Positions 2-31,526 of a stretch of 32,000 bases of DNA are shown piece by piece. Position 1 is the first letter of the stretch. The number at the start of each line of letters is the position of its first letter. The notes under the pieces are model-generated. The model was not told where the DNA came from and did not search any database. It saw only the letters and a list, made by a program, of their open reading frames with translations. This DNA is from Xenococcus sp. PCC 7305. GTDB lineage: Bacteria > Cyanobacteriota > Cyanobacteriia > Cyanobacteriales > Xenococcaceae. The stretch is taken from positions 15,173 through 47,172 of the forward strand of contig NZ_ALVZ01000225.1 in the NCBI RefSeq assembly GCF_000332055.1, given 5' to 3'. A program made the translations under genes and the position numbers.

Positions 2-829
2 CGGGAAGAAAGATTACCTAATGTGGGTTTTCGTGGAATAAATGAAGGCTACCAAGAAGATGCGGGGGAGACTATTCCTTTTACCGAATCGACTAAGATT
101 CTTGGTGGCGACCTTGATGTTGACGTCTCAATCGTTCGTCAACTAGGAGAAGGTGCCAGAAGTAGTCGCGAAAATATGAAGGTTCGAGCTCTTGCCCTTC
201 AGTTTGACCGCACCTTTATCAAGGGAGATCCCACAACTAATCCTAAGGAATTTGCGGGACTGCAAGCAAGAATACCTTTGTCTCCTACTTCGACTCAGTT
301 GGTTTTCCCCGCTGGGCCTGGAACTACTCCCTCAAGCAATGGCGATGCCCTAAGGCTTTTGTCTCTAGACTGGGCGAAAAAAAGAACTCGCCGCCCCACC
401 CATTGGGTAATGAACCAGACTATGGCCTTGTTGCTCACTGAGGCAGCTCGAACCACTGGAGTTTCTGGGTTTATTCAGTATACGCAGGATGAATTTGGTC
501 GGCCTGTCACTATGTATGCTGGTCTCCCTATTATTGAGATGGAAGAAGACAACCTAGCAAATGAGATTTTGCCTTTTGAAGAGGAATCCCCTGGAGGTGG
601 AACTCCTACCTCGACATCTATCTATTGCGTGTCTCTGCGACAAGAAGGTTTGATGGGAATCCATAATATGCCTAGTGACGCCGAGATGTTTCAAATTCGA
701 GATCTAGGCGAAGTGGACGATAAGCCCGTTTTGCGTACACGAGTAGAGACCGAGATGGGAATCGCCGTCATGGATGCTCGATCTGTAACTCGGATCGCTG
801 GGATTACCAACGCGGCAGTTACCGCCTAA
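2..829 (+). CDS. phage major capsid protein (HK97-fold type), 5'-partial at window edge
   Basis: The frame is open from nt 2 (REERLPNV precedes the GTG at 23), so the gene begins upstream of the window. Capsid-family-like motifs are present (IKGDPTTNPKEFAGLQ, NQTMALLLTEAA). It is followed by small structural-looking ORFs and a tail fibre gene. Confidence 0.55.
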   Translation, partial: REERLPNVGFRGINEGYQEDAGETIPFTESTKILGGDLDVDVSIVRQLGEGARSSRENMKVRALALQFDRTFIKGDPTTNPKEFAGLQARIPLSPTSTQLVFPAGPGTTPSSNGDALRLLSLDWAKKRTRRPTHWVMNQTMALLLTEAARTTGVSGFIQYTQDEFGRPVTMYAGLPIIEMEEDNLANEILPFEEESPGGGTPTSTSIYCVSLRQEGLMGIHNMPSDAEMFQIRDLGEVDDKPVLRTRVETEMGIAVMDARSVTRIAGITNAAVTA

Positions 830-858: not shown

Positions 859-1284
859 ATGTCTAGTAGTTTTTCCACTATTCCTCTTACTCGCAAAAGC
901 AATTATGATGCGGCAACAGTGTTGCGAGAAGTTAGCGAAGCGCCAATCTCTGCCGCTACCAATGGGACTCCCTTGGGCTTGCTGAGATGGCATCGCCACG
1001 GCGAATATAAATGCGTGATCAATAGTTATGCTTATAGTTCCTATGTAGCGGGCTCCGCTGAGTGGGTGATTTCCATCGAGGTCGCCAATGACACTGGCAG
1101 TACCTATGCCGAAATTGCTTCAACAGTGGTTCCTGGAGTCGCGACTACCAGCGAGATTCCTCTTTCTGGAGAGCTGGTCAACCAAGCTTTAGTAGATGAG
1201 GTTGATCCGGTGATTCGCGTCGTGGCAACCCCCACGGGTTCCCCTGGTGATTTAACTTATGGTGCTTTCTTAACTTGCGTTTAA
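859..1284 (+). CDS. hypothetical phage structural protein (141 aa)
   Basis: ATG lies 30 nt after the capsid stop and the ORF runs co-directionally. Its stop is 1 nt before the next start. No recognisable motif. Confidence 0.5.
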   Translation: MSSSFSTIPLTRKSNYDAATVLREVSEAPISAATNGTPLGLLRWHRHGEYKCVINSYAYSSYVAGSAEWVISIEVANDTGSTYAEIASTVVPGVATTSEIPLSGELVNQALVDEVDPVIRVVATPTGSPGDLTYGAFLTCV

Positions 1285-1285
1285 T

Positions 1286-1639
1286 ATGAGTGTTGTTCTA
1301 TATAAAGACGGCGATCGCAAAGATCTTCATGAGATTGATGTTCCGGCCTGGATGGCTGCTGGTTGGTCGCGATCGCCGTCCAGTATTCCTTCTGATCCAG
1401 AAGAGATCGAGGAGCCAAGCCAAGAGCCGGAAGAAAATGAAGAGCCTAGTAGCTCTGAAGGGAGTCTTCTGGTTAACCTCAACGAAGCCTCTCAAAAAGA
1501 AATTACCGCTCTGTCGAGAATCGGAAGGGTCGGAGCTAAAGCCATTATTGAGGCTCGCCCTATTGAGTCCTTTGATGAGCTGACAGAAGTCTTGCCTAAT
1601 GTTGATTGGGAATCTTTGCGATCGCAGATTGAGGTTTAG
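1286..1639 (+). CDS. ComEA-like helix-hairpin-helix DNA-binding protein with acidic linker
   Basis: The C-terminal segment LVNLNEASQKEITALSRIGRVGAKAIIEARPIESFDEL matches the ComEA/HhH pattern (IN.A..eEL..LpGIG...A..II..R.....F.s.eeL). The middle is an acidic PEE-rich linker. Confidence 0.6.
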   Translation: MSVVLYKDGDRKDLHEIDVPAWMAAGWSRSPSSIPSDPEEIEEPSQEPEENEEPSSSEGSLLVNLNEASQKEITALSRIGRVGAKAIIEARPIESFDELTEVLPNVDWESLRSQIEV

Positions 1640-7924: not shown

Positions 7925-7927
7925 AAA

Positions 7928-7976
7928 CTTCCTACTTCCTACTTTCTACTTCCTACTCCCTACTTTCTACTTTAAA
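7928..7976 (+). repeat. heptanucleotide tandem array A (CTTCCTA/CTTTCTA/CTCCCTA x6) ending in CTTTAAA
   Basis: Read directly as cttccta cttccta ctttcta cttccta ctcccta ctttcta ctttaaa. It is the reverse complement of the unit used at 31071-31119 and 31417-31458. Confidence 0.9.
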
Positions 7977-8149
7977 ACCATGCCTATCAACGGATTGACA
8001 GATCGTGCAACGATCGCAAACAACATTATCGCGGGGGTCCCTACCCTCAACGCAGTAGGGTAAGGAACGGAGTGTTTAAGCGCCTGGCAAAGCACAGGCG
8101 GCAGCTCCTCGGGATAGCGCACTAATTCAAGGGCTCGATGCCCGCAGAA

Positions 8150-8359
8150 TCAGTTACTAGGGCTATCTTGTGCCTCGATGTATTTTCTAATTCTTTCGAT
8201 AGTTGCACCGCCACAGCTGGCAATGTAATATGAGCTTGACCAAAAGACTGGTTTAGAATAGACTTTTTCGACTTCAGGCTTGAACTCTTTCCTTATGATT
8301 CTGCTAGAAGCACTTTTGAGACTTGCTACTAATTGAGCAACATTATTGTCTGTAAAAAA
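8150..8359 (-). pseudogene. tnpA: IS200/IS605 Y1 transposase (tnpA) C-terminal remnant, no start codon and no HUH motif
   Basis: The minus-strand frame reads FFTDNNVAQLVASLKSASSRIIRKEFKPEVEKVYSKPVFWSSSYYIASCGGATIERIRKYIEAQDSPSN*. This matches the C-terminal half of TnpA (lKg.sSr.lrkEF...fWs.sYf..s.Gg...e.i.kYIe.Q). An in-frame stop precedes it and it runs straight into the tnpB ATG at 8362. Confidence 0.75.
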
Positions 8360-8361
8360 TT

Positions 8362-9648
8362 ATGTTAACACGACGCATCACATTCAGGCTGTATCCTTCA
8401 AATTCTCAAGAACAGAAACTGTTCTGGGCAAGAAGAATGCACGCTTATTTGTACAATGCAGCTGTGTGCAACAGAAAAACTCAGTACCAAAGATTAGGCC
8501 ATTCGGTTGATTATTTTGAACAGCAAGCTTCATTGCCAAAATTTAAAGAAGTTTGGACAGAGTATAAAGAGCTTAATGCAGGTTCACTGCAAGCTACTTT
8601 AAAGCGAGTAGATTTTGCTTTTGTTCGTTTCTTTCAAGGACTAGGTGGTTATCCAAAATATCGTTCAATTAGAAAGTATTCTGGCTGGACTTATCCTGAC
8701 GGCAGACAAGGTTTCAAAGCTCATACTGAAGGTAAGAATGGTTATTTAGAGTTAAGAGACTTAGGGTTTAAAGTCCAAATGCGAGGTCAAGCTCGAACTT
8801 GGGGAAAGCCCACTACCTGCACTATCGTTTATCGTTCAGGTAAATGGTATGCCTCTATCACGGTCAGATGTTTTCCTACTAGAAAACTTGGGAAAGGAGC
8901 AATTGGGCTTGATTTTGGCTGCAAAACTGCTATAGCCGATAGCAATGGGAAGCAAGTTAAGCCTCCTAAGTTTCTAGCTAATGCTCAAAATGAAATCAAT
9001 CAATTGTCAAAGCAGCTAAGGAGAAAGAGAAGGCCAGAGAAGAGAAAACATAAAGGGTCTCGCCGCTGGAAAAAAGTACAAAGCAAGATCTCCAAACTCA
9101 AGAAAAAGATTGCAAATCAGCGTCAAAATTGGGTTCATCATCAAGCAGTAGAGATAGTAAGCTGTAATAGCCTCATTGCCACAGAGAAGTTGAACATCAA
9201 AAACATGACGCGTAAAGCCAAAAAAGGCAGCAAAAGAAAGCGACAAAAAGCTGGGCTAAATCGTTCAATGCTGGATGTTGGGATAGGGATGCTTAAGAAA
9301 GCGATTGCCTATAAGGCCAAGGAAGCTGGAGCAATTTATCTAGAGGCTCCGACAAAAAGCTTAAAGCCAACTCAAAGATGTGCAATATGCTGGAAACTTA
9401 CTAAAAAAGACTTGTCTGATAGGCTACATGTTTGTTCCAATAAAGATTGTAATCATACTGAAGATAGAGACGTTAATGCTGCTCAAGTTTGTCTCGCTTG
9501 GGCGCGTGGGCAGGAACTGTCCTCGTTGAAGACTGCTGATGAGTCTAGCTCTACTAGAAGCTCCAAAGTTAAAAGCTGCGGAGGCTTTCAGCAACTAGCT
9601 CAGGTGAAGCGTCAGAAACTCATGGCTCAACGAAGTAGCCATGAGTAG
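8362..9648 (+). CDS. tnpB: TnpB (IS605 OrfB-type RNA-guided nuclease), 428 aa, catalytic residues present
   Basis: N-terminus RRITFRLYPSNSQEQKL. RuvC-I GLDFGCKTAIADSNG, RuvC-II LIATEKLNIKNM, zinc ribbon CAICWK...CSNKDC and RuvC-III DRDVNAAQ are all present. It has a long C-terminal tail. Confidence 0.85.
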   Translation: MLTRRITFRLYPSNSQEQKLFWARRMHAYLYNAAVCNRKTQYQRLGHSVDYFEQQASLPKFKEVWTEYKELNAGSLQATLKRVDFAFVRFFQGLGGYPKYRSIRKYSGWTYPDGRQGFKAHTEGKNGYLELRDLGFKVQMRGQARTWGKPTTCTIVYRSGKWYASITVRCFPTRKLGKGAIGLDFGCKTAIADSNGKQVKPPKFLANAQNEINQLSKQLRRKRRPEKRKHKGSRRWKKVQSKISKLKKKIANQRQNWVHHQAVEIVSCNSLIATEKLNIKNMTRKAKKGSKRKRQKAGLNRSMLDVGIGMLKKAIAYKAKEAGAIYLEAPTKSLKPTQRCAICWKLTKKDLSDRLHVCSNKDCNHTEDRDVNAAQVCLAWARGQELSSLKTADESSSTRSSKVKSCGGFQQLAQVKRQKLMAQRSSHE

Positions 9649-9670: not shown

Positions 9671-9919
9671 CTAGAGGAGATCGCCAAATATCTGGCAAAG
9701 ACCGAGAAAGTTAAGTTCATCAAGCTTTTTCCACCCAGTCAAGAGAGAAGAGGTTTTGCTATAGCTGATTCTTTCTTGTCTTTCGTACCAAGCTTCGGTT
9801 CTAGCAGCCAAAGCTTTGTTATAGACCAAACGCACACATCCCATTGTTCGGCGCAAGAGATTTTCTTGTTCGAGCGTGGGGTAAAAACGAAATTTGTAGG
9901 CACGTTCAGTCATGCTCAC
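9671..9919 (-). pseudogene. tnpB: N-terminal fragment of a different tnpB (about 70 native residues)
   Basis: MTERAYKFRFYPTLEQENLLRRTMGCVRLVYNKALAARTEAWYERQERISYSKTSSLLTGWKKLDELNFL is a typical TnpB N-terminus. The reading frame then ends within 10 codons where the neighbouring element begins. Confidence 0.75.
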
Positions 9920-14418: not shown

Positions 14419-15642
14419 ATGCCTAAAATTGAAAAGTTAACTAAAGAACAAGAAGCAAAGCTTCCTGAGTATCGAGATAAGTGGCTTGCGATCGGTCTGT
14501 CCACTAATCCAGGGGACGAGAAGATTGCAGAAGAGGCGATTAAAGAAAGCTATCGTCAAGTTAATTTGAACTTCCCCAAGAAGATTATTTGGTGCGATTC
14601 CCCTTTGAGTCTTGTTTTGGTTGACTCTATTTTCAAAAGGGATTCAGTCGGGGATTCAGTCGGGGATTCAGTCGGGGATTCAGTCGGGGATTCAGTCAGG
14701 GATTCAGTCAGGAATTCAGTCTGGGATTCAGTCGGGGATTCAGTCTGGGATTCAGTCTGGGATTCAGTCGGGGATTCAGTCTGGGATTTAGTCAGGGATT
14801 CAGTCAGGGATTCAGCCAGGGCTTCAGTCAGGGCTTCAGTCAGGGATTCAGTCTGGGCTTCAGTCGGGGCTTCAGTCTGGGCTTCAGTCGGGGATTCAGT
14901 CGGGGCTTCAGTCGGGGATTCAGTCTGGGATTCAGTCAGGGATTCAGTCAGGAATTCAGTCTGGGATTCAGTCTGGGATTCAGTCGGGGATTCTTGTTTT
15001 GGGTCGCATGATGCCCACTGGCTGGGATTTTATGATTTTTTTGCGACGGAGCTGCAAATTCAGGAAGCTCATCGCTTAGAGCCATTAAATCTAATTGCTC
15101 AGCATTGCGGTTGGTGGATTCCTAGGGAAAAAGTTTGCCTTGTTTCTAAAAAACCTATCATTTGCACTGTCAACGATCGGGGAGAGTTGCACAACGAAAC
15201 AACAGCAGCTATTGCCTATAGAGACGGGTTTTCTGTTTATGCAATCAACGGAGTTGTGGTTCCTGAAAAAGTAGTAGTTGAGCCAAAAACGCAAACTATT
15301 CAAGAGATCCAAGAAGAATCTAATGTTGAGGTCAAGAGGATTAGGATCGAAAAGTATGGTCACGAAAAATATCTTTACGAGGCTAGGGCTCGACTTCTCG
15401 ACAGCACTACGATCCGTCCTGAGCAGGGAACTCCTTGGATGGAAAGCTTGTATAAAATCGATGAGAGTCTTTCTGTGTTAGTAACCTGCGACCCTTCGAC
15501 AGGAAGAGTTTATTTTTTGGATGTTCCCGCTAGCTGCCAATCTTGTCTTGAGGCTCAACACTATTTGCAGGCTCCCGAGTTGATTCTACAAGGAACGGGT
15601 TTTGATTTCCCTATTACCACTTATCCAAAACTGAGGACTTAA
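14419..15642 (+). CDS. repeat protein: 29 x (D/A/N)S(V/A)(G/R/W) tetrapeptide tract plus conserved C-terminal domain (DUF6745-like from memory)
   Basis: Continuous ORF through the 348-nt repeat. The C-terminal segment WWIPREKVCLVSKKPIICTVNDRGELHNETTAAIAYRDGFSVYAINGVVVPEKVV...ESNVEVKRIRIEKYG resembles a family I recall as DUF6745. Confidence 0.6.
   Translation: MPKIEKLTKEQEAKLPEYRDKWLAIGLSTNPGDEKIAEEAIKESYRQVNLNFPKKIIWCDSPLSLVLVDSIFKRDSVGDSVGDSVGDSVGDSVRDSVRNSVWDSVGDSVWDSVWDSVGDSVWDLVRDSVRDSARASVRASVRDSVWASVGASVWASVGDSVGASVGDSVWDSVRDSVRNSVWDSVWDSVGDSCFGSHDAHWLGFYDFFATELQIQEAHRLEPLNLIAQHCGWWIPREKVCLVSKKPIICTVNDRGELHNETTAAIAYRDGFSVYAINGVVVPEKVVVEPKTQTIQEIQEESNVEVKRIRIEKYGHEKYLYEARARLLDSTTIRPEQGTPWMESLYKIDESLSVLVTCDPSTGRVYFLDVPASCQSCLEAQHYLQAPELILQGTGFDFPITTYPKLRT
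14641..14988 (+). repeat. 29 tandem copies of a 12-nt unit (consensus GATTCAGTCNGG), in frame
   Basis: Counted directly. Unit position 10 is G in 11 copies, A in 9 and T in 9. Position 2 is A or C and position 1 is G or A. There are only two other substitutions in 348 nt. Confidence 0.95.
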
Positions 15643-16079: not shown

Positions 16080-16508
16080 ATGTGTTTTTGCGATAACATC
16101 CCAGACTACTACAAATCAACCAAAAGAAAAGCGAGGAAAACTCATGTTTGCGATGAGTGCAGTCAGCCAATAAAAAAGGGGACTCATTACTTTGTTGATC
16201 GCGGAGTAATAGATGGTGAATGGTACGGGAGTAAAAGGTGTCTTGAATGCGACGATCTTTACCATTTTTTGCTAGATAGGCTTGATTGTTTTTGCCCAAA
16301 CCTTGGCGAGCTAATGGAAGAAATAAGGGACTCGGACATTCAAAACGAAGATTACTTAATTCCTCTATTTTTAAACGAGCAGGGAATTTTGCAGGAGATG
16401 GACACTTCGGTCGAGGAAAGCAGCAAAGAATATGATGAATATCGGCATGATGCTTTTTTCGCTAGTCATTTTCGCTTGAAGGAAGCTTTTGTGAAGGAGG
16501 CTGCGTGA
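16080..16508 (+). CDS. Cys-rich (zinc-ribbon-like) hypothetical protein
   Basis: GGAGGG lies 4 nt upstream of the ATG at 16080, so the track's TTG at 16053 is less likely. CDEC...CLEC cysteine pairs are present. Confidence 0.5.
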   Translation: MCFCDNIPDYYKSTKRKARKTHVCDECSQPIKKGTHYFVDRGVIDGEWYGSKRCLECDDLYHFLLDRLDCFCPNLGELMEEIRDSDIQNEDYLIPLFLNEQGILQEMDTSVEESSKEYDEYRHDAFFASHFRLKEAFVKEAA

Positions 16509-17482
16509 AACTGACCATACCAAGTAAGGCTCCGATCGCAGTTGTAGGTTTTGCTGGAGGAGGCGGAGTGGAATGCGGGCTTCTAGCCGCAGGAATTCGT
16601 CCAGCTCTTTCTATCGAGTTCAACCCCCAAGATCCTAAGCTCTCAAGCGCGATCGCAGACTGTCATGAAGCCAATTTTAGTGAGTATGGCAAGCTCTTGA
16701 GAATGACCGTTGAGGATTGGACAAGCCAAGACTTTCCTGATTGCCCCGATCGCGTAGACGTAGCTCATTTTAGCCCCATGTGTTCTAATTTTTCTGTGGC
16801 TTCTCACGGGAAAGAAAGCGAAGAAGATATCGAAGCTGCTAAAGCGATCGCCGCTTTCATTGAAGCTAAGCAGCCTAGCTACTTCAGTTTAGAGAATGTC
16901 GTGGGCTACAAAAAATCTCAGTCCAGCTCTTATATTATTGCCAAGCTTGAAGCTTGTGGCTATTCCTTTGTCGAGACGGTTTTAGACTTTGCTGATTATG
17001 GAGTGTGCCAGTCGCGATCGCGCTATTTCATTATTGCTAGTAAACAATCTTTTGAATTTGACTTACCTAAGCAGCCGCGACAAGGGTGGCTAGAGGTTAT
17101 CGGAGACTTGCTCGAAGGGCTGCCTCTTAACGAGCTAACCAAGAACCAACAAGCCGCGATCGCAAAATACCAAGGCGATTTACCTTGTTTGCTACCACGG
17201 GTCGGCTATAGCAAATTACCTCGAATAAGACCTCCAGATAGAGTTGCGCCGACTATCACTAAATCGCTTTTTGTTGACGACAAGGGCTGTAGCCGCAATA
17301 AAGTTTGGAATATTTGGGACGGCAATAAATTAAGTCAAGTAGACATTGAATGCTTTCGTCGCTTGGCGACCTTCCCCGACTGGTATCAGTTCCCAAAAAA
17401 AATGGCTGTAGCAGGTTCAATCCTTGGTTACGCAGTCCCCCCAACAATCATCGAGCAGATCTACAGGAGGATTATGTTTTGA
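16505..17482 (+). CDS. DNA (cytosine-5) methyltransferase, orphan
   Basis: Motif I VVGFAGGGGVECG, motif IV HFSPMCSNFS, motif VI SLENV, motif VIII QSRSRYFIIA and motif X GYAVPP. The GTG start follows AAGGAGG and overlaps the previous stop (GTGA). Confidence 0.85.
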   Translation: MKLTIPSKAPIAVVGFAGGGGVECGLLAAGIRPALSIEFNPQDPKLSSAIADCHEANFSEYGKLLRMTVEDWTSQDFPDCPDRVDVAHFSPMCSNFSVASHGKESEEDIEAAKAIAAFIEAKQPSYFSLENVVGYKKSQSSSYIIAKLEACGYSFVETVLDFADYGVCQSRSRYFIIASKQSFEFDLPKQPRQGWLEVIGDLLEGLPLNELTKNQQAAIAKYQGDLPCLLPRVGYSKLPRIRPPDRVAPTITKSLFVDDKGCSRNKVWNIWDGNKLSQVDIECFRRLATFPDWYQFPKKMAVAGSILGYAVPPTIIEQIYRRIMF

Positions 17483-19260
17483 AAATTTTAACCGAAAAAA
17501 AATTAGCCTATTTTGATTTGGCCGATATCTTTTTATATGCCACCGCAGAACTTCAGAGGATTTGTAATTGCTTGTTACCTAAAAACCCTAAACAGGCCAA
17601 AAAGGTTATCCAAGGAATTGCCGAGATTACCGATAGGCTTGAGTTTTGGACGTTTATCGATTCTCCTACTCTTTTAGGTAATTACTTAATTAGTAACCAA
17701 GGCAAATGCTATTTTTTAGACGAACAAAGACTTTTGTATCAATGGGCTAAGCCTGCCCCCGATCATTACGTTTTGCCCTGCGTAAACCCCAAAACAGAAG
17801 CTGTTGAACTTAAGGAGGTTCCCACTCAAAGGTTAATTTTTTTCCAGTTTGGGGAAGCCGTAACCGAGGCAGATAAAAAAAAGTTTTTTGATGTTCCTTT
17901 GTTGCTTAAACCAGGGGCAAAGAAAAACTCTTTTGTCTGTAGCGATTTGTACTTGCCAAAAAGAAAAAGAGGGAAGAAGAAGCAGCTACCTCCAATTAAA
18001 CTTTCTAAGGGAATTAAGTTTGCCGATCCAAGCGATCGCGAATTTTTGTTAAACGGAATGCCCATTCGCAGTGACTTGAGGAAGATGATTTTTGGGATTT
18101 TAACCTCCAACCCAGAGGAAACTTGGACGAGGCTCAAATATCCTCAAACCTCTTGTCATCTTATTAGCGATCGCGGGAGCTGCTTGTCTTTAGCGACAGC
18201 CAAGCTAAAGATGCCTAGGGTCAACGCGAGAGGGCAGTTTCGCCTTACGTTTGCTTTACGCAATCCTAAGACCAAAAAGAAAACTAATCTAGGCGGTTCA
18301 GTTGCCAAACTTGTTTTTATTAGCTTTAACAAGATTCCTATTAGAGTTAGTGAGGTTTGCCAGAACTATAAGGTTTTGGCTATTGATGGAGCCAAGGATA
18401 ATTTCAATCTTGAAGAGTTGGTCTTGGTTAAGTCTCCGTCTAAAGAGACTCAGATAAGCTTAAACCAAGTGCGTAAAATTCGAGCAAGTCTAGCTTCTTT
18501 TTCGGGAAAAGAGTTAACTGAAAAAGTTAAGGCGATCGCGCTTGAGTATGGTTTTGACTATCAAAAAATTCAAGACATTAACAAGCATCGCCTTTGGAAA
18601 GAGATTCCGTGTCAGAGATTAAATCCCTGTTTTAGCTTGTTGAATTCGGTTAAGTTTCTTTACCCAAGCGATCGCGAGTTCTTTTTAGAAAATATGCCCG
18701 ACTCAGAAGAGAAAAGGCTTGAATTTGCCCAGCTTTTAAGTTCAATCCCTGGAGAGACTTGGACTAGAGTGAGGTTCCCTCAAGGCACCTCGCGGCATCT
18801 AGTTAGCGATCTTGGACGTTGCTTGTCGGTTATAACCCCAAGGTTTTTATCTTTTCGCTACTATTCGAGCACCTATAACTATGGTTTGACTTTTGTCGAT
18901 CCTGAAACCAAGAAATGCTTTTCTCGCAGCTGCTCAGGGCAAAGGTTGGTCATGTTCAGCTTTAAAGACATTCCCCAGGAAATCATTTCTAATCCCGATC
19001 AATATCGAGTGGTTCCCAGGGATGGAGACAAGAAAAACTTCAAGCTAAAAGATTTAAGAATAGTTCAAGCTATTCCCCATAAAAGCCCCCTTAGCTTAGA
19101 CATTGTCCGAGAAATCCGTTTTCAATTTGCTCAGTTGGCCGGCGCAAGTTCTGATGAAATCACAGCCAAGATCAAGGCTTTCTCTGAGCAGTACAGGGCT
19201 AAATATTCTGAAATTAGAGACATTAAGGAGGATGCGGCATGGATAGAGACCAATTACTAA
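17479..19260 (+). CDS. tandem-duplicated NUMOD4/HNH_3-like/HTH protein, catalytic His apparently lost in both copies
   Basis: The TTG at 17479 is 7 nt after AGGAGG and overlaps the methyltransferase stop. There are two about 190-aa repeats (PSDREFLLNGMP...EETWTRLKYPQTSCHLISDRGSCLSL...KVLAIDGAKDNFNLEEL...ISLNQVRKIR and PSDREFFLENMP...GETWTRVRFPQGTSRHLVSDLGRCLSV...RVVPRDGDKKNFKLKDL...LSLDIVREIR). Confidence 0.6.
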   Translation: MKILTEKKLAYFDLADIFLYATAELQRICNCLLPKNPKQAKKVIQGIAEITDRLEFWTFIDSPTLLGNYLISNQGKCYFLDEQRLLYQWAKPAPDHYVLPCVNPKTEAVELKEVPTQRLIFFQFGEAVTEADKKKFFDVPLLLKPGAKKNSFVCSDLYLPKRKRGKKKQLPPIKLSKGIKFADPSDREFLLNGMPIRSDLRKMIFGILTSNPEETWTRLKYPQTSCHLISDRGSCLSLATAKLKMPRVNARGQFRLTFALRNPKTKKKTNLGGSVAKLVFISFNKIPIRVSEVCQNYKVLAIDGAKDNFNLEELVLVKSPSKETQISLNQVRKIRASLASFSGKELTEKVKAIALEYGFDYQKIQDINKHRLWKEIPCQRLNPCFSLLNSVKFLYPSDREFFLENMPDSEEKRLEFAQLLSSIPGETWTRVRFPQGTSRHLVSDLGRCLSVITPRFLSFRYYSSTYNYGLTFVDPETKKCFSRSCSGQRLVMFSFKDIPQEIISNPDQYRVVPRDGDKKNFKLKDLRIVQAIPHKSPLSLDIVREIRFQFAQLAGASSDEITAKIKAFSEQYRAKYSEIRDIKEDAAWIETNY

Positions 19261-20291: not shown

Positions 20292-21413
20292 TCATGCAGA
20301 GATTGCAGCAGATAGCTGACTGACATCTCCTACCCTCAGAGTTGAAGCCCCAACTCTTAAAATGTTGACCGCTGCATTAGTATCACGCCCGTGCTTACAA
20401 CTACATGATGGGCAAGCCCAATAACGTTCAGCTAAAGACAATTCATCCAAAACATAGTCACAGCTAGAGCAAGTTTTAGATGATGGATACCATCGATCAA
20501 TATAACTAACAATCTTTCCTTTCTTTTGGGCAACAAACTCTAGTATTTTGAGAAACTCGCTAAAGGCCAAATCTCCTATCTTGCGCCCCCAGAGCCTTTG
20601 CATTCCTTTGAGGTTAAGAGTTTCAAAATAAAGATAATCATAGCCATCGGTTAACTGATGAGCTAATTTCCAGAACCAATCGCTTCGGCGGTTGGTTACC
20701 TTCTCATGAACTCTGACTAAATTTTTTCTAGCTTTTTCCCTTGAGTTTGAGCGTTTTTGCTTCCGAGAAAAATCACGGCTGGCTAACTTTAATCGCTTTA
20801 AAGACTGCTTAAGGAATAGAGGTGAATCAATGTCATTGCCATCAGAGCAAGTTAAAAATGTTTTTAACCCAAAATCAAAACCCGCGCTTTTACCCGTCAT
20901 GGAAGTGATTTGATAATCAACATGATCTGTTACTACAAAGATGAACAACTCCCCTAGGGGATTTCTTTTAATAGTTACAGTTTTAACTTTCCCTTGGATT
21001 TCTCTACTTTTCCAATAGCGATAAATTTTGTTGCCAATTTTAAGTTGATTGTTATCTAGAAATTTATACCCTGCTTGTTTAAGAGTGAATGACTTATATT
21101 TAATCCTCTTCCTAAAATTAGGTGGCCTGACTCCTTTTTTATGATGCTTGAAAAATAACTGATAAGCTCTATCGATTCGCTGCGCAATATCTTGGACAGC
21201 TTGAGAACCTACTAATTGCCAGTACTCATTTTTTCTCCTGAGTTTAGCAATATGCTTCATTAACCTATTTTTGTTTAAGTGCTTACCAAACATAGAATAA
21301 TAACGCTTATGCAAAGCTATGCAGTGGTTATAAATATTTCCTGCTGCATTAATTGAGCGATGCAAATGCTTATTTTTCTTATGCTGGTATAACTTAAATT
21401 TGTAGGTCTCCAT
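20292..21413 (-). CDS. tnpB: TnpB RNA-guided nuclease (373 aa), catalytic residues present
   Basis: METYKFKLYQHKKNKHL. RuvC-I AGFDFGLKTFLT, RuvC-II YLYFETLNLKGM, zinc ribbon CSSC...CPSC and RuvC-III GRDTNAAVNI are present. Confidence 0.9.
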   Translation of the reverse strand: METYKFKLYQHKKNKHLHRSINAAGNIYNHCIALHKRYYSMFGKHLNKNRLMKHIAKLRRKNEYWQLVGSQAVQDIAQRIDRAYQLFFKHHKKGVRPPNFRKRIKYKSFTLKQAGYKFLDNNQLKIGNKIYRYWKSREIQGKVKTVTIKRNPLGELFIFVVTDHVDYQITSMTGKSAGFDFGLKTFLTCSDGNDIDSPLFLKQSLKRLKLASRDFSRKQKRSNSREKARKNLVRVHEKVTNRRSDWFWKLAHQLTDGYDYLYFETLNLKGMQRLWGRKIGDLAFSEFLKILEFVAQKKGKIVSYIDRWYPSSKTCSSCDYVLDELSLAERYWACPSCSCKHGRDTNAAVNILRVGASTLRVGDVSQLSAAISA

Positions 21414-21455: not shown

Positions 21456-21854
21456 ATGGCGCAAAAATATCGACACAAAATTACTTCTGTGACTTTAATT
21501 AATTATCATTTTGTTTGGTGTCCAAGAAGACGAAAAAAAGTGTTAAAGGGGTTAGTTGCTGAACGACTGAAGCAATTAATAATTGAGGCTTGCCAAGAAA
21601 TTGATGTGACAGTATTAGCAATGGAAGTTATGAGCGATCATGTTCATGCTTTCTTAAATTGCCCTCCAACCCTTGCACCTTACCAAGTCATGCATAAAGT
21701 TAAGGGTTACACTGCCAGATACTTAAGACGAGAATTCAAAGAGCTACTTAAGCTTCCTTCAATGTGGACTAGAAGTTATTTTTGCTCTACTGCTGGGAAT
21801 GTTTCATCTAGTACTATTGAGAAATATATCGCTCAACAAAAAACCCGTGGCTAG
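21456..21854 (+). CDS. tnpA: IS200/IS605 Y1 (HUH) transposase TnpA, 132 aa
   Basis: YHFVWCPRRRKKVL, the HUH motif SDHVHAFL, KVKGYTARYLRREF and a C-terminal catalytic-Tyr helix STIEKYIAQQ. The gene is divergent from tnpB with a 42-nt gap. Confidence 0.9.
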   Translation: MAQKYRHKITSVTLINYHFVWCPRRRKKVLKGLVAERLKQLIIEACQEIDVTVLAMEVMSDHVHAFLNCPPTLAPYQVMHKVKGYTARYLRREFKELLKLPSMWTRSYFCSTAGNVSSSTIEKYIAQQKTRG

Positions 21855-22944: not shown

Positions 22945-24187
22945 TTGACATACTCCCCGCCCTAAAGGTGCGGAGATTCTGGGATCAAGCAGCAATTGCG
23001 CCCAAAGAGCGTCTTACATCGCCTAGCCCAAGAGAAGATGCCCCTTCTCTTTTAATGTTCTTAGCTGCATTCAAATCTCGATCCAACTTGGAGCCACAAC
23101 CAGGACAATCCCAAACCCTATCTTTGAGAGTTAATTCTTTATTGTGATATCCACAATCAAAACAAGTTTTGGAGCTGGGATAAAACCGATCAATAAAATG
23201 TATTGTCTTTCCTTTATTCCTAGCTACTGTTTCCAGGATTTCTAAAAAAGTTGAGAAAGATAAATCACTGACTTTTCTCCCCCACAACTTTTTCATTCCT
23301 CTAAGATTTAAATCTTCAAAAATTAGCACATCATAATCATTTGTCAATTTATGGGCTAACTTCCAAAACCAATCTCTACGTTTATTGGAAATTCGCTCAA
23401 ATACTCGATTGAGATTGTCTTTGGCCTTGTACCAATTATTAGAACCTTTTTTCTTCTTAGAAAGATTTCTGCTAGCAGCTTTCAACAAATGTCTAAACTC
23501 ATTAAAAAACAAAGGAGATTTGATAGTTGTTAAGTCACTTGCAGTTAAAAATGTTTTTAACCCAAAATCGAAGCCTGCAATTTTACCTGTCACGACTCCG
23601 AAAGATTCATCTTTATAGCCAGTTACCACTAAGATAAATAACTCACCAAGATGATTGCGCTTAACCGTCAGCGTTTTAATCTTTCCTTTTATTTCTCTAC
23701 TTTTCGAAAATTTATAAATTTTATTCCCTATCCGAATTTTGTTGTCTTCTAAGAACCTGTATCCTGCTTGCTTTAGAGTGAATGATTTATATTTTCTGGT
23801 CTTTTTGAAGTTAGGGGGTCTTGTCCCTGACTTGCATTGCTTAAAAAATAATTTATAGGCTTTATCGATTCTTTGACAAATATCTTGTACTGCTTGGGAG
23901 CCAACTTGCTGCCAATATTTTATTCGTCTTCTAAGCTTAGCAATATGCTTCATGAGCCTGTACATGTTCAAGTGCTTACCAAAGATTTTGTAGTATCTTT
24001 TATGCAAGGCAATACAATGATTGTAGATACTTCCACTAGCATTGATTTGCCAATTCAGGTATCTATTCTTCTTTGACTTGTATAGCTTGAACTTGTACGT
24101 TTTCATGAGAATATTTTATCATGAATTACTTGATTAGTACTAAAGAATTACGCCCTGAAGGGCGGGGCTTTAAACCCATGATTTTAG
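22945..24187 (-). mobile_element. tnpB-only IS200/IS605-type element inserted in a coding sequence
   Basis: RE is TTGACATACTCCCCGCCCTAAAGGTGCGGAGATTC at 22945 onward. LE is TTACGCCCTGAAGGGCGGGGCTTTAAACCCATGATTTTAG(G), ending at about 24187. GTAA (TTAC on the element strand) lies at 24188-24191. Boundaries are supported by the empty paralogous site. Confidence 0.75.
22985..24106 (-). CDS. tnpB: TnpB RNA-guided nuclease (373 aa), close paralogue of 20292-21413
   Basis: MKTYKFKLYKSKKNRYL. RuvC-I AGFDFGLKTFLT, RuvC-II VLIFEDLNLRGM, zinc ribbon CFDC...CPGC and RuvC-III DRDLNAAKNI are present. Confidence 0.9.
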   Translation of the reverse strand: MKTYKFKLYKSKKNRYLNWQINASGSIYNHCIALHKRYYKIFGKHLNMYRLMKHIAKLRRRIKYWQQVGSQAVQDICQRIDKAYKLFFKQCKSGTRPPNFKKTRKYKSFTLKQAGYRFLEDNKIRIGNKIYKFSKSREIKGKIKTLTVKRNHLGELFILVVTGYKDESFGVVTGKIAGFDFGLKTFLTASDLTTIKSPLFFNEFRHLLKAASRNLSKKKKGSNNWYKAKDNLNRVFERISNKRRDWFWKLAHKLTNDYDVLIFEDLNLRGMKKLWGRKVSDLSFSTFLEILETVARNKGKTIHFIDRFYPSSKTCFDCGYHNKELTLKDRVWDCPGCGSKLDRDLNAAKNIKREGASSLGLGDVRRSLGAIAA

Positions 24188-25143: not shown

Positions 25144-26517
25144 AGGTACGGAGATTCTAGCACCTCACGACGCTAGCTTTCTGCTTCGACCTGTGCCAAC
25201 TAGAGCATCGTGACCGATACTCCCCGTCGCTTCCAGTCCACAGACATTTTCAACCACGCTATGCCCTAGCGCAGAGACTCCTCTATTTCTTATTTCTTGG
25301 CTAGCTGCTACGTCCCTTGTAGTTCTATATCCACACTCACCGCAATGATGAAAGCGAATATCTAAAGTTTTCTTGCCTGTATGTGCGCCACAGTTAGGGC
25401 AAGTTTGGCTTGTCCCATCTTTATTGACCACAGCAAAATACACATCACGACGGAAACATACCCACTCAAGAATACTTACAAACTGGCCAAATCCAGCATC
25501 GGCACTATGTTTTGAAAGCATTCCTCTTTGCCAAGAAACGAAATTGATGTCTTCTACGAATATCATTCCTGTTCCATCACAAAGATGATGAGCTAATTTA
25601 AAGTGCCAATCTTTTCTGGTGTCAGATATTCGTTGATGCAGTCTAGCTATTTTTTGATTAAGCTTGTGTCGATTATTTGAGCCCTTGTGCTTATTCTTTA
25701 ACCTGCGTTGTAGCAATTTAAGCTTACGATGCATGAGCTTTAAGAATCGAGGTCGTTTAATTTCTTCTCCATCACTGGTGGCAACAAATTTGTCGTATCC
25801 TAAATCCAATCCCCTAGGATGACCATGCGGCAATGGATTTGGGGTATCGACCTTTAGCTGTAATGACAACATCACGAAATAACCAGACGCTTTTCTAACG
25901 ACCCTTGCTTGCTTGACTTCAAAACCTTCAGGAATATCTCTTGATTTGCGCCATCTAATCCACCCAAATTTTGGCAGCTTAATAGCATCATCTTTGATTG
26001 GATTTTTCCCTAGTTGAGGAAAAACAAATGAGCGCATTCGATACCTATTTTTGAACCGAGGGAATCCAAACCCTCTAGATCTCATATCGTCCCAAGCTCT
26101 ATCTAATATTCTTAAAGTTTGCTGTAACACTTGAGAATGAACAGAACTTAATGCAGGATAGAGCTTTTTTGCATCTGTTAGCTGTTTGGCTTGTTGGTGA
26201 TAGCTAGGGAATGGTTCATCAACAGAGATTATATATTCTGAATTAATCGAGCAGGCATTTACAAGAGACTTACGAGAGTTACACCAGTCTTTGCGCTGTC
26301 TGAGCGCAAAATTCCAAACAGAACGACAAATATCGAGTGTTTTTTCGATGTCAGTAATTTGCTCTTTTGTTGGCTGTAGCTTGTATTCGTAAGTCATTGT
26401 TAGCATTTAGCTATTATAGCTTACATGGGGAGCGGCAGCATGTAAAGTTTTGAGCAAGTCAATATACAGGAAGGCTTACGCCCTAAAGGGCGAGGTTTTA
26501 GACCCATGATCCCAAGG
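25123..26517 (-). mobile_element. tnpB-only IS200/IS605-type element, with ends like 22945-24187 but a different TnpB
   Basis: RE is TTGACATGCTCTCCGACCTGAAGGTACGGAGATTC at 25123 onward. LE is TTACGCCCTAAAGGGCGAGGTTTTAGACCCATGATCCCAAGG, ending at 26516 or 26517. Confidence 0.7.
25165..26406 (-). CDS. tnpB: TnpB RNA-guided nuclease (413 aa), distinct subfamily
   Basis: TYEYKLQPTKEQITDIEKTL. RuvC-I RGLDLGYDKFVATSDG, RuvC-II MIFVEDINFVSW, zinc ribbon CPNC...CGEC and RuvC-III TRDVAASQEI are present. Confidence 0.85.
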   Translation of the reverse strand: MLTMTYEYKLQPTKEQITDIEKTLDICRSVWNFALRQRKDWCNSRKSLVNACSINSEYIISVDEPFPSYHQQAKQLTDAKKLYPALSSVHSQVLQQTLRILDRAWDDMRSRGFGFPRFKNRYRMRSFVFPQLGKNPIKDDAIKLPKFGWIRWRKSRDIPEGFEVKQARVVRKASGYFVMLSLQLKVDTPNPLPHGHPRGLDLGYDKFVATSDGEEIKRPRFLKLMHRKLKLLQRRLKNKHKGSNNRHKLNQKIARLHQRISDTRKDWHFKLAHHLCDGTGMIFVEDINFVSWQRGMLSKHSADAGFGQFVSILEWVCFRRDVYFAVVNKDGTSQTCPNCGAHTGKKTLDIRFHHCGECGYRTTRDVAASQEIRNRGVSALGHSVVENVCGLEATGSIGHDALVGTGRSRKLAS

Positions 26518-28510: not shown

Positions 28511-29453
28511 TTTTCTTACTCCATTGTTTAATTAAATCTTCTACTCCATCAGAAAGACAGCTATATTTTGTCAAAAGCTCAGCGCAGAGAATAGGGTCTA
28601 TTTTTAGGTAAACCTTATTTTCTACAGGCAACAAAAACTGATAACTGATGTCAGGGATTATTTGTTCGCCACGTTGTATAGTCGCTCCAAATTCTCCAGC
28701 TTCTGTGATGCGGACGTGAGAGCCTTTGTGTCCAACAAGCGCTGGATGCTCCGAATCTTTCTTGACCATCGCCAAGCTTCCGACGGCCGGATTTTTCCGC
28801 TTTTTGTCTCGTAGTTCAATCCTAGACGCTTTGGTTCGCGCCTCGTAGGGATGGAGATCTGGTAGCTGACTTTCAAGTTCTATTACCTCTTTTTTCGTTA
28901 AGTTTTTTGTAACCGCAGATGGTGCGATCCCTGCCTTATCCGCGATCGCATTTACGGATTCGGCGTATTTACCGTCACGCTTGATTGTTTTGGCACTTAC
29001 CCCATGCTCAGCAGCTAGTTTTTCGGCTGTGTTAGTTTTAGCTCTTGTAGGTGTTAAGGGGACATTTTGTCCCTTTACCTGTTGATCGTCCCCGCCTTTT
29101 TGTTCGTTATAAATCAAGCCTCGAAAGTAAGAAACTAGATTTGGTGGCAAGTTGCGACGACCAAGCTGGTTTTTGATCATCCATTTTTTGACTGATGAGC
29201 GATCGCTAAACTTTAGCCGGAGAACATTAAATTCGATGTCTTCCTGTTGGCAAATTTCGTAGCGGTGATGACCATCAATAATAATGTCTTGATCTTTCCA
29301 GACAATTATTTCTGGAGTGATGTCACCTGTAAGAAGGTTTTCCTTGAGCTGCGATCGCGCTTCGGGGGTCAGAGGTGGCAGTAGTCGCTGAAACTCAGGA
29401 TCGATCTTAAGTTTAGGCAAGGATGGCACGATTTTAAGTTGAGCTACCATCAT
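28479..29453 (-). CDS. ParB-like nuclease-domain protein with C-terminal HTH region
   Basis: KIDPEFQRLLPPLTPEA...IIVWKDQDIIIDGHHRYEICQQEDIEF...NQLGRRNL is the ParB/Srx N-terminal domain signature (DGHHR). Confidence 0.75.
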   Translation of the reverse strand: MMVAQLKIVPSLPKLKIDPEFQRLLPPLTPEARSQLKENLLTGDITPEIIVWKDQDIIIDGHHRYEICQQEDIEFNVLRLKFSDRSSVKKWMIKNQLGRRNLPPNLVSYFRGLIYNEQKGGDDQQVKGQNVPLTPTRAKTNTAEKLAAEHGVSAKTIKRDGKYAESVNAIADKAGIAPSAVTKNLTKKEVIELESQLPDLHPYEARTKASRIELRDKKRKNPAVGSLAMVKKDSEHPALVGHKGSHVRITEAGEFGATIQRGEQIIPDISYQFLLPVENKVYLKIDPILCAELLTKYSCLSDGVEDLIKQWSKKNEDIVNSKNP

Positions 29454-29545
29454 CTAATCTCCAGGGGACTCCCGTTAAAGCCGACAGGCTTAGCGGGAGG
29501 GGAATGGAGGTCAACAAATAACCTGAGCGTAGCGAATCCCTTTTT

Positions 29546-30820
29546 TTAGTAAACATAATTGTATCCGTCGTTTTTATGGACATGAGTTAAGTATTTTGGA
29601 TGAACATCAAACTTCTTATCAGGTAACTGAAGAACAAAACTAGGACGAAATCTAATAGCAATTCTGCCTAGATATTGACCTGTAAATTTACCTTTAAGGA
29701 TAGATGCCGATACCAAATCTCCTGTTTGAAATCCTCGAAAGAATTTAGCTTTAGAAGCATGGCTTTTGGGGAATCCAAACTTGTTAGGACGGCATCGTTG
29801 CCTTGTTCCGTGACCTGTTGCCTTAATCAACAAGGGTTGATTAGTTTTAAAGATTAGATCCTTAGAAAGTTGACCTACACAAGCAGCATCTTGCCAATGA
29901 GTCTTGGGAACTTTTAATTGTTTGCGATTAAACTTAGTCAATCCTCCACTCCCTGTCTCTACTGGGAATCCAAATTCTTTGAGCGAATTAAATAATTTCC
30001 AACGGGTAGAATTAACAGCGGCAGCATCCTTTAAAGGAGTCTTTGCTTGCTTTAAAATACGGTTAATCAAGTCAGGCTTCTCTTTTAGAAAGTCCTTGAT
30101 ATCTTGGTTCCCCTTAGATTGATTACAGTCATGACAAGCTAAAGTTAAATTGGAGACTCGATCAGAGCCACCTTTTGAGCGGGCTTTGATATGGTCAACC
30201 TCAAAAGGAACATTTTGTGCCCCACAATATTGACAGGTACGATTAAACTTATTTAGCAGGTACTCTCGAACCTCCCAACCGTAAAGAGTTCCGTGTTGAT
30301 ACTCAACTCCACTAATCTCAGGGTTCTCCTGTTTTTGTAAGTCAAATTTAACCAACTCAACAGAAATTGAATCTACAGGGCAATATCTTATTAATCTTTT
30401 AACCCAAGTTAAAGTAGTATCTACTCGATGCTGGAGGCTTGGGGGGAGCCAACCTTTGGGGCGAGTTCTGTTAAGAAATCTTGGTTGACGATAACGGGTT
30501 TTACGTCCTCGCCTTCCTTTTCTTAATTGTCGCCTTGAGGTTAATTTATCCTTGATATGTTGTCCTCTATGCTGTAATTCCGCTCCCCAAATAACCCGAT
30601 TGTTTTGCAACAACGCAATTCCAGTTTTTTGAGAACCTGGGTCAAGCTTTAATTTGACATTCTTCTGAGTTTCTTTTGCTTCCTCCTTGAGAATAATAGT
30701 GAAAGGATAACGCCGAAATACAGCAGCCTTCCCCTCTGTTAATAATCGTCTTGCCTGCCCAGGATGAACAGGGTTTAACGGGTTTTTAACTGTATCTAGA
30801 ACAAAAACATAATTTTGCAT
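29546..30820 (-). CDS. iscB: IscB RNA-guided nuclease (PLMP domain, split RuvC, HNH insert), 424 aa
   Basis: PLMP-like NPLNPVHPGQARRLLTEGKAAV, RuvC-I KLDPGSQKTGIAL and bridge helix RRQLRKGRRGRKTRYRQPRFLNRTRPKGW. RuvC-II ISVELVKFD, HNH CQYCG...EVDHIKARSKGGSDRVSNLTLACHDCNQSKGN and RuvC-III THWQDAACVG. Confidence 0.85.
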   Translation of the reverse strand: MQNYVFVLDTVKNPLNPVHPGQARRLLTEGKAAVFRRYPFTIILKEEAKETQKNVKLKLDPGSQKTGIALLQNNRVIWGAELQHRGQHIKDKLTSRRQLRKGRRGRKTRYRQPRFLNRTRPKGWLPPSLQHRVDTTLTWVKRLIRYCPVDSISVELVKFDLQKQENPEISGVEYQHGTLYGWEVREYLLNKFNRTCQYCGAQNVPFEVDHIKARSKGGSDRVSNLTLACHDCNQSKGNQDIKDFLKEKPDLINRILKQAKTPLKDAAAVNSTRWKLFNSLKEFGFPVETGSGGLTKFNRKQLKVPKTHWQDAACVGQLSKDLIFKTNQPLLIKATGHGTRQRCRPNKFGFPKSHASKAKFFRGFQTGDLVSASILKGKFTGQYLGRIAIRFRPSFVLQLPDKKFDVHPKYLTHVHKNDGYNYVY

Positions 30821-31064
30821 TTTAAGTCTCCCGTTAGGGGTAATGTTTGCCTCGCTTGGTTATCTAACTTTGTTCGGTCTAATTCACTGGATTAACCCGT
30901 TTAGTCCTGTTTAAAATTAAACGACAGAGCTTAAAGCTGGCACGTACCTTAAGGTGTCATAAGTTAAATAACGTTTACTGAAGTTTTCAGTAAGCTGGTC
31001 ACCTTGCGGACTTTTTCAAGCCCCCGTTAAATTGCGGAGCAATTAACGGTGGGTCGGTGACGGG
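30821..31064 (-). ncRNA. candidate IscB omega-RNA scaffold
   Basis: 244 nt with no ORF directly upstream of iscB on the same strand. Nested helices: 30998-31003 with 31056-61, the 31021-31053 hairpin and the 30977-30991 hairpin. OMEGA IscB systems encode their guide RNA in this position. Confidence 0.55.
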
Positions 31065-31070
31065 TTTAAA

Positions 31071-31158
31071 GTAGTAAGTAGTAAGTAGGAAGTAGTAAGT
31101 AGGAAGTAGTAAGTAGGAAGTCGTTAAAACTTTCTACTTTCTACTCTCTACTTCCTAC
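31071..31158. repeat. heptamer array B: 7 x GTAG(T/G)AA, an 11-nt spacer, then 4 inverted units (TTTCTAC-type), forming an imperfect palindrome
   Basis: Read directly. Forward units are at 31071-31119, the spacer GTCGTTAAAAC at 31120-31130 and inverted units at 31131-31158. TTTAAA precedes it at 31065-31070. Confidence 0.9.
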
Positions 31159-31407
31159 TTTCAAGATCTCCTCTATATGTTTAGCGTCGGCAACTACTTG
31201 TTTAAAGGCTTGTCTGCCTTGTGCGATCGCTTTTTCTTTGTCGGCCATTGATTCGCCGATTAAAGTTCGATTCTCTAAATAAGAGCGAACCCAATATTTG
31301 TAGCTGGGTGGGCGATCGGGCTCTGTGACCTCAACTAAGTTCAGGACGCAGCTTGCTTCTTTTGCGATCGTCTCTTCGACGTAGGTTTTTCCTGGGGCAA
31401 TTGGCAT
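31141..31407 (-). CDS. hypothetical protein (88 aa) bracketed by heptamer arrays
   Basis: The ATG lies 3 nt after TTTAAA of array C (minus strand). The last about 9 codons (ILKVGSRE) are encoded by the inverted heptamer units. Confidence 0.45.
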   Translation of the reverse strand: MPIAPGKTYVEETIAKEASCVLNLVEVTEPDRPPSYKYWVRSYLENRTLIGESMADKEKAIAQGRQAFKQVVADAKHIEEILKVGSRE

Positions 31408-31416
31408 GGCTTTAAA

Positions 31417-31458
31417 GTAGGGAGTAGGAAGTAGGGAGTAGGAAGTAGGGAGTAGGAA
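31417..31458 (+). repeat. heptamer array C: 6 x alternating GTAGGGA / GTAGGAA, preceded by TTTAAA
   Basis: Read directly. TTTAAA is at 31411-31416. Confidence 0.9.
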
Positions 31459-31526
31459 GTTATAAATATTTTACTGGCAAGCTGAACACAATGTTTCTTG
31501 CTTTATACAAAAAACATCTATGCTTC

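Follow-up and report, generated by a model that had tools for sequence, protein, structure and literature searches.

A stretch of 32,000 nucleotides (nt) from the cyanobacterium Xenococcus sp. PCC 7305 (contig NZ_ALVZ01000225.1), referred to here as the window, very probably carries on its minus strand, at about positions 29451-31061, a non-autonomous insertion sequence of the IS200/IS605 type. This element, of ~1.61 kb, lies in a phage-like region and encodes an intact IscB nuclease together with its omega-RNA. The presence of an IscB and its omega-RNA inside an IS200/IS605-type element had been proposed in a first-pass annotation, in which a model read only the sequence, and the profile, structure-sequence and covariance-model tests reported here agree with it. 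All the items described in that annotation were found at, or no more than 3 nt from, the positions it had assigned to them. The one unusual trait of the Xenococcus IscB is its position exactly before the start codon of a gene, as in many of its relatives.

An intact IscB and its omega-RNA

The reading frame of iscB is uninterrupted through all 424 amino acids (aa) and every catalytic residue is kept. Pfam placed RRXRR (PF14239), which corresponds to the RuvC plus bridge-helix region of the IscB/Cas9 type, at residues 5-177 (E = 1.9e-76) and HNH (PF01844) at residues 196-239 (E = 1.1e-13). The best matches among the chains of the Protein Data Bank (PDB) were TbaIscB (1.4e-44), HfmIscB (1.4e-28) and OgeuIscB (5e-28), with IsrB and the small Cas9s ranking below the IscB chains. 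The IscB layout with intact catalytic motifs that had been read from the translation was borne out by these profiles and alignments. RuvC-I provides D60 within KLDPGS, RuvC-II provides E156 within SVELVKFD, and RuvC-III provides H308 and D311 within THWQDA; the arginine-rich helix spans residues 96-115, and the HNH insert contains C196xxC199, D209-H210 (EVD209H210IK), N224 and C229-H-D-C232-N233, with two CxxC pairs. D60, E156, H308, D311 and D209-H210 line up with the catalytic residues of the solved IscB structures, and the presence of HNH between RuvC-II and RuvC-III identifies the protein as an IscB, distinct from IsrB. Residues 5-45 align with the N-terminal region of TbaIscB and OgeuIscB-like chains, in agreement with the PLMP-type N-terminus assigned earlier, but the motif itself is NPLNPVHP and reads PLNP in place of PLMP. 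The length of the protein fits the small IscB size class (about 400-500 aa, without a REC lobe). Judged by its sequence, the 424-aa protein is an IscB in which no RuvC or HNH catalytic residue is missing, and RNA-guided double-strand cleavage dependent on a transposon-adjacent motif (TAM) is its predicted activity, with both the guide and the TAM being predictions as well.

RNAs of the HEARO family are today recognised as the omega-RNAs of IscB (Meers et al., bioRxiv 10.1101/2023.03.14.532601; review PMC13565253). The covariance model of this family (Rfam, RF02033) matched the minus strand upstream of iscB over its full length (model positions 1-211 of 211), with 127.3 bits against a gathering score of 83 (E = 2.7e-26), and the match stops 19 nt ahead of the iscB ATG, on the same strand. 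The structured upstream region that had been placed at 30821-31064 corresponds, therefore, to a full-length HEARO omega-RNA of 241 nt, but its true 5′ end is 31061 and not 31064. An alignment of 17 related omega-RNAs revealed compensatory changes in 29 of 45 consensus pairs, and the minimum free energy of the Xenococcus molecule has a z of -3.0. The three helices pointed out from the sequence all match HEARO consensus helices. They are the GTCACC/GGTGAC helix, formed by 31056-31061 with 30998-31003, for which compensatory changes were counted; the small hairpin at 30977-30991, where such changes are visible by eye in the alignment; and the first stem-loop at 31021-31053, where they were seen by eye in loci L003, L004, L007 and L008.

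The hairpin arm reported to recur three times turned out to belong to two related end hairpins, whereas the copy before the start codon is a leader stem overlapping the Shine-Dalgarno sequence and not an end. This third copy of TAACGGGAG, just before the iscB start, was ruled out as a transposon end or third TnpA site. The leader hairpin (30821-30839) is conserved, and other complementary sequences substitute in loci L020, L022 and L029. Because the differing sequences of distant relatives still form a stem over the Shine-Dalgarno sequence, the third copy is read as a hairpin that sequesters it.

The predicted guide segment, TTACTACTTTAAACCC, is unique in the window, where its nearest matches carry 2-3 mismatches. 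A guide length of 16 nt is that of published IscB systems. No CRISPR array lies beside iscB, the repeats of the window being restricted to tandem units of 7, 12, 14, 15 and 21 nt, and no CRISPR repeat family was found by the Rfam scan of the window.

Ends of the element and mobility of its family

The boundaries of the element were set by aligning it with 19 cyanobacterial loci, whose flanks are unrelated from locus to locus. Similarity to the relatives begins exactly at the G of GTCAC, at position 31061, which is the 5′ end of the omega-RNA. On the distal side, it spans the hairpin and the conserved ...TAACGGGAGTCCCCTGGAGGTATAAAG ATGG, and ends after ATGG at 29447. These two sharp boundaries delimit an element of 1.61 kb, at about 29451-31061, which differs little from the 29465-31064 given before. 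By IS200/IS605 convention (Meers et al., bioRxiv 10.1101/2023.03.14.532601), the end beside the omega-RNA counts as the right one, and the left end is distal to iscB and adjoins the TAM. Under this convention, the TAM comes after the target on the iscB strand, as IscB requires.

The sequence TAACGGGRG occurs exactly three times in the window, always on the minus strand and within the IscB element (31021-31029, 30828-30836 and 29469-29477), and arms complementary to it are located at 31044-31052 and 29491-29499. The hairpins at 31021-31053 and 29469-29499 have common CCG(Y)TAA / TTTAACGGGRG arms. The second of them, at the left end, folds as single-stranded DNA (z = -3.7) and is kept in relatives, with loop inserts that vary. 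The motif ATGG is invariant in 25 of the 27 distal ends matched by pattern (two of the ends are doubtful). No conserved motif was seen at the omega-RNA-side flank of the aligned relatives, there is no target duplication between the flanks TTTAAACCC and ATGGTAGC, and terminal inverted repeats are absent. A reading of CCAT by the GGGA located just 5′ of the left-end hairpin, following the IS608 rule (TTAC with AAAG), suits the main family but misfits the ATGA subfamily and was not relied on.

Relatives were collected by a scan of one genome per prokaryotic species, which gave 36 loci. Many of the encoded proteins are 76-87% identical to the Xenococcus IscB at the amino acid level and come from Crocosphaera, Cyanothece, Okeania, Aphanothece and other cyanobacteria. 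HEARO was found just upstream of iscB in 19 of the 20 loci scanned, with 85-158 bits. The protein family comprises 7841 database clusters at E <= 1e-100, and many of its members, the nearest being 87% identical among the relatives listed, have already been named "RNA-guided endonuclease IscB" by NCBI. The Xenococcus element thus belongs to a large, already named and well-populated family. The occurrence of this element family at 24 or more independent insertion sites with shared sharp boundaries shows its past mobility. DNA-level relatives of the Xenococcus element were not found by megablast in phage and plasmid collections. No Y1 TnpA was found inside the element, and none lies 2.5 kb or less from iscB in the 36 related loci; for iscB genes in general, a tnpA in the vicinity occurs in about 1.5% of cases (Meers et al., bioRxiv 10.1101/2023.03.14.532601). 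The earlier statement that no tnpA is adjacent is correct and describes the typical situation, but a Y1 TnpA (21456-21854) is encoded in the same window, in a separate IS605 element whose ends look unrelated.

Some particular loci were recorded during this comparison. Miniature copies are present in L097 (HEARO at 1109-1330, minus strand) and L128 (HEARO at 224-444, plus strand), where a full-length omega-RNA of 120-134 bits is accompanied by the distal end and merely ~30-60 iscB codons are retained. Because these copies lack the open reading frame (ORF), they would need IscB as well as TnpA in trans. In the Okeania locus L009 (2250-2500), an intact iscB with 83% identity has no HEARO upstream; the upstream DNA resembles the zinc-finger end of a TnpB gene, followed by GTCATAGACC..., and the omega-RNA may have been replaced or lost. 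In the Nodularia phage vB_NspS-kac68v162 (L129, record 62517-66791), a 57%-identical IscB lies between two coding sequences labelled 'transposase', with a HEARO match of 82.7 bits, just below the threshold. The downstream 'transposase' corresponds to the C-terminal TNB domain of TnpB only, which suggests that the IscB element was inserted into a TnpB gene beside an IS607 transposase.

Insertion before start codons and explanations of the locus

The ParB-like gene downstream of the element opens at the ATGG that abuts it and stops at 28479, and the NCBI call of 323 aa (Xen7305DRAFT_00008550) starts from that same ATG. Uninterrupted paralogous leaders are found in the window at 7927-7982(+) and 31405-31460(-), where heptamer repeats and CTTTAAA(A/G)CC are followed directly by ATG. 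The IscB element sits precisely between CTTTAAACCC and ATGG in the third copy of this leader. The two paralogous leaders, with CTTTAAANCC directly before ATG, provide internal stand-ins for the empty site. Taken as a recurrent intergenic unit, the leader occupies 7927-7982(+), 31062-31162(-) and 31405-31460(-) and consists of 5-8 tandem heptamers, CTTTAAANCC and then the start codon. The heptamer consensus on the plus strand is AAGTAGG/AAGTAGT, the repeats extend into the 3′ end of an 88-aa ORF, and the IscB element is inserted at one of these three copies.

To see this position in the context of the family, 24 distinct main-family insertion sites were pooled from genome and metagenome loci. 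The metagenome pattern scan used a 17-mer of the distal end, and about two-thirds of its 44 matches were due to chance in GC-rich DNA and were discarded. In 16 of the 24 sites, a co-oriented ORF with 98 or more codons starts from the terminal ATG, whereas this holds for 12.9% of ATGG sites within the flanks (binomial p = 1.5e-9). Ten of the start-codon ORFs were scanned and encode ordinary host proteins, among them an HI0933-like flavoprotein, phosphofructokinase, CpeS, an alpha-amylase-family enzyme, prepilin peptidase and malic enzyme. In six of these ten, a Pfam domain begins from profile position 1-2 within residues 2-18, and the terminal ATG is therefore the native start in those six.

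The last 12 nt of the family element, GGAGGTATAAAG, contain a Shine-Dalgarno-like GGAGG located 7 nt from the ATG. Distal ends with GGAG coincide with a gene start in 16 of 22 sites, and sister-subfamily ends without GGAG (…TTGCYSCAT…AG ATGG) do so in none of the 3 securely identified sites. In loci L013 and L015, …GAGGATTATT is followed by ATGA, which in L015 is the start of a phosphofructokinase gene; …GAAAGGACGTTTT followed by GTGA in Chloroflexi loci shows the same geometry, and in Ralstonia phage Claudette (L131:2890-2915) …AGACTG precedes the ATGA from which a DksA-like gene begins. GGAG(G) in the terminal 12 nt may act as the ribosome-binding site of the gene whose native leader was displaced by the insertion. 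In that role, it would make insertions at start codons tolerable. The association with start codons is a computed result, and the role of GGAGG as a ribosome-binding site is our inference.

A broader proposal, plausible but put forward tentatively, is that in this IscB family, and apparently also in the ATGA and GTGA clades, the start codon of a host gene serves as the TAM while the terminal 12 nt carry an outward-facing ribosome-binding site. The insertion would slot between the leader and the ATG, and the gene would become the second cistron of an iscB operon instead of being inactivated. The TAM would be ATGR, which is compatible with the NWRRNA of OgeuIscB, and the natural targets would be the 16 nt upstream of start codons. 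No statement on start-codon targeting by IscB or IS605 was found in the searchable literature, which left out key papers from 2009 and 2021.

A mechanism can be proposed from published work, according to which iscB elements are co-oriented with the upstream gene and usually depend on transcription coming from upstream (Meers et al., bioRxiv 10.1101/2023.03.14.532601). Read-through from the co-oriented upstream phage gene (31141-31407) would produce an omega-RNA whose 5′ 16 nt, TTACTACTTTAAACCC, derive from the flank; no convincing promoter was seen between that gene and the omega-RNA. The complex of IscB and omega-RNA would cut copies of the phage genome where TTACTACTTTAAACCC directly precedes ATGG, that is, the element-free joint; in the published model, too, it is the donor joint that is targeted (Meers et al.). 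Such an empty site would be left by TnpA excision or found in a co-infecting relative without the element, and recombinational repair from the occupied copy would restore or spread the element. The occupied site would be immune because GTCACC, and not ATGG, comes after the target. Transposition would need a Y1 TnpA in trans.

Several points weigh against the interpretation of the locus as a mobile IscB element docked on a start codon. An empty-site allele of the Xenococcus phage was not found in phage and plasmid collections, IMG/VR or a large protein database, and the exact cut between element and TAM was therefore deduced from family conservation and the paralogous leaders. Both flanking proteins are without relatives in IMG/VR, and in the large protein database the downstream one has, beyond the identical Xenococcus protein, only relatives of <=48% identity. 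No second copy of the element is present among the relatives listed, the nearest of which is 87% identical, and the genome scan did not return the Xenococcus genome. A cognate transposase was not identified, the sole TnpA of the window sitting in an element with unrelated ends. Finally, the terminal GGAG pairs with CTCCA across the hairpin base in the predicted fold, and the conservation of GGAG could therefore serve structure rather than translation.

Another explanation, which we consider rather unlikely though deserving of attention, is that the element is mainly a phage weapon or homing device that, like a free-standing homing endonuclease, cuts element-free co-infecting phages, is copied into them and drags neighbouring markers along. 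The phage-like content of the window (major head, tail, Rha, Bro-N and methyltransferase genes) is consistent with this idea, as are the recurrence of IscB with HEARO in unrelated phages (Microcoleus phage My-WqHQDG, Ralstonia phages and a Nodularia phage) and the failure to identify a cognate TnpA in the window or in related loci; moreover, 'non-restorative homing' into co-infecting phages is listed as an OMEGA mode in a 2026 review (PMC13565253). However, its molecular mechanism is the same as that proposed above and differs only in which empty site matters, and no related phage genomes, which could show spread, were found in the phage and plasmid collections or IMG/VR. The closest relatives (76-87%) are chromosomal insertions at many cyanobacterial sites, a distribution that needs transposition and not homing.

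It is quite improbable that the locus is a decaying relic, with ORF and RNA intact through recent arrival and expression or activity gone. An apparently single copy without relatives above 87% identity among those listed, terminal 12 nt with 5 departures from the family consensus (GGAGATTAGATG versus GGAGGTATAAAG) and the lack of an own promoter that stands out would fit such a state. Against this, the 424-aa frame is unbroken with every catalytic residue kept, the HEARO score of 127 bits is an intermediate value among those of the relatives (85-158 bits), both hairpins are intact, and dependence on upstream transcription is normal for IscB elements (Meers et al., bioRxiv 10.1101/2023.03.14.532601). 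That the gene encodes an ordinary HNH homing endonuclease of phage, preceded by a structured 5′ leader and lacking an RNA guide, as the label 'HNH endonuclease' of phage relatives and phrog_2214 and the JGI label McrA of relatives might suggest, is refuted with near certainty by the Pfam, PDB and Rfam results, since HNH occupies only residues 196-243 of 424, the remainder is an RRXRR/RuvC fold matching solved IscB-omega-RNA complexes and the leader is a full HEARO match.

Surroundings of the element and comparison with known systems

The window is phage-like in encoding a major head protein, a tail protein, Rha, Bro-N, a DNA methyltransferase, a dCTP deaminase and a ParB-like protein, and IscB, the TnpBs and TnpA together account for ~21% of its 32 kb (Table 1). 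The Y1 TnpA is 7.6 kb away from the IscB element. The TAACGGGRG hairpin is absent from the TnpB/TnpA elements of the window, and because the element of this co-resident TnpA lacks it, the enzyme is probably not the cognate transposase. A 636-aa 'HNH endonuclease' was considered as a second IscB and ruled out, as it has no similarity to IscB and no RRXRR. This protein, encoded at 17350-19260(+), matches phrog_59 ('HNH endonuclease') end to end (2.3e-64) without any significant Pfam domain, and its ORF overlaps the end of the methyltransferase ORF 16505-17482. Elsewhere in the window, at 14639-14993, 29.6 tandem copies of the 12-nt unit GGGATTCAGTCG lie within ORF 14419-15642 (DUF6745 domain) and give rise to a tetrapeptide-repeat stretch in a phage protein.

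Table 1. Positions of the IscB element, its parts and other IS200/IS605 genes in the window
Feature	Positions	Strand	Remarks
ATGG, inferred TAM	29447-29450	-	CCAT on the + strand; also start codon plus G of the downstream ParB-like gene
Terminal segment TCCCCTGGAGATTAGATG	29451-29468	-	Conserved in relatives as TCCCCTGGAGGTATAAAG; outward-facing Shine-Dalgarno-like GGAG at 29459-29462
Left-end (iscB-distal) subterminal hairpin	29469-29499	-	CTCCCGCTAAGCC-TGTC-GGCTTTAACGGGAG
iscB gene	29546-30820	-	424 aa; PLMP-like N-terminus, split RuvC, bridge helix, HNH insert, C-terminal TAM-interaction region
Omega-RNA 3′ tail and iscB leader	30821-30839	-	Small hairpin CCCC-UAAC-GGG(AG) overlapping the iscB Shine-Dalgarno sequence GGGAG
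Omega-RNA scaffold (HEARO, RF02033)	30840-31061	-	Rfam; 5′ end is the transposon end on the iscB-proximal side (conventional right end)
First omega-RNA stem-loop	31021-31053	-	HEARO helix; CCCACCGTTAATTGC-TCC-GCAATTTAACGGGGG; as DNA would be the right-end subterminal hairpin
Predicted 16-nt guide segment TTACTACTTTAAACCC	31062-31077	-	Directly 5′ of the HEARO start; flanking phage DNA, outside the element
Degraded TnpA-like stretch	8162-8335	-	Weak match; adjoins the TnpB at 8362
TnpB genes (four, full-length)	8362-9648(+), 20292-21413(-), 22985-24106(-), 25165-26406(-)		Mutual identity 22-64%
TnpB N-terminal fragment	9671-9919	-	
Y1 (IS200-like) TnpA	21456-21854	+	E = 4.6e-39; divergent from TnpB 20292-21413, forming an autonomous IS605-type element

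As an IscB locus, the Xenococcus element adds little to a family that is large, named and biochemically understood: it contributes another compact nuclease, of 424 aa, whose predicted motif is ATGG. A phage-like region in which about one-fifth of 32 kb is IS200/IS605 cargo, including four diverse TnpBs, a TnpA and an IscB, could be a natural test bed for OMEGA-driven homing between co-infecting phages. Docking on start codons, if confirmed together with the element-borne Shine-Dalgarno sequence, would account for the persistence, in gene-dense genomes, of a transposon whose target is 4 nt long. The ATG at the beginning of IscB motifs would be explained in the same way, and the docking might represent a damage-limiting strategy.

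Domain order and catalytic residues of the Xenococcus IscB are the same as in the Geobacillus stearothermophilus IscB (GstIscB) element (Meers et al. 2023) and in OgeuIscB (PDB 7XHT, 7UTN), whereas sequence-level similarity to the solved IscB proteins is only about 28-30%. Elements of the GstIscB/OgeuIscB type likewise have a ~240-nt HEARO-type omega-RNA directly upstream on the same strand, starting from the transposon end, as well as subterminal hairpins without inverted repeats, no adjacent tnpA and co-orientation with the upstream gene. The TAM of GstIscB, TTCAT located 5′ of the left end (Meers et al.), becomes ATGAA on the iscB strand by our own reverse complement. The Xenococcus motif also begins with ATG but, unlike that of GstIscB, is ATGG. 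A further difference from GstIscB and OgeuIscB is that, in the Xenococcus family, the end bears the Shine-Dalgarno-like GGAGG and most copies lie on a host start codon, a feature that was not found stated in the searchable papers.

The cyanobacterial proteins named 'RNA-guided endonuclease IscB' (L002-L018) share with the Xenococcus IscB 76-87% aa identity, the same omega-RNA, the end hairpins and the terminal ...CCCCTGGAG-N8-ATGG. In contrast to these copies, which lie beside chromosomal housekeeping genes, the Xenococcus copy is in a phage-like region and its terminal 12 nt have diverged at 5 positions. Among phage proteins, PHROG 2214 matches the Xenococcus IscB over its full length (7e-281), and the IscBs of Microcoleus phage My-WqHQDG, Ralstonia phages Claudette, Heva and Adzire, and Nodularia phage vB_NspS-kac68v162 are 49-57% identical to it. 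All three of the phages checked have HEARO upstream of iscB, and the distal end of the element in Ralstonia phage Claudette lies directly against the ATGA with which the following gene opens. Unlike the Xenococcus element, these phage-borne elements have the motif ATGA and the terminal sequence …AGACTG, and there is no similarity between them at the DNA level. Finally, the TnpB-omega-RNA elements (IS605/IS607), represented in the window by four tnpB genes, resemble IscB in having a guide RNA that reads the flank and a TAM common with TnpA. TnpB differs from IscB in its single RuvC without HNH, in the position of its omega-RNA at the 3′ end of the gene and in a TAM located 5′ of the target.

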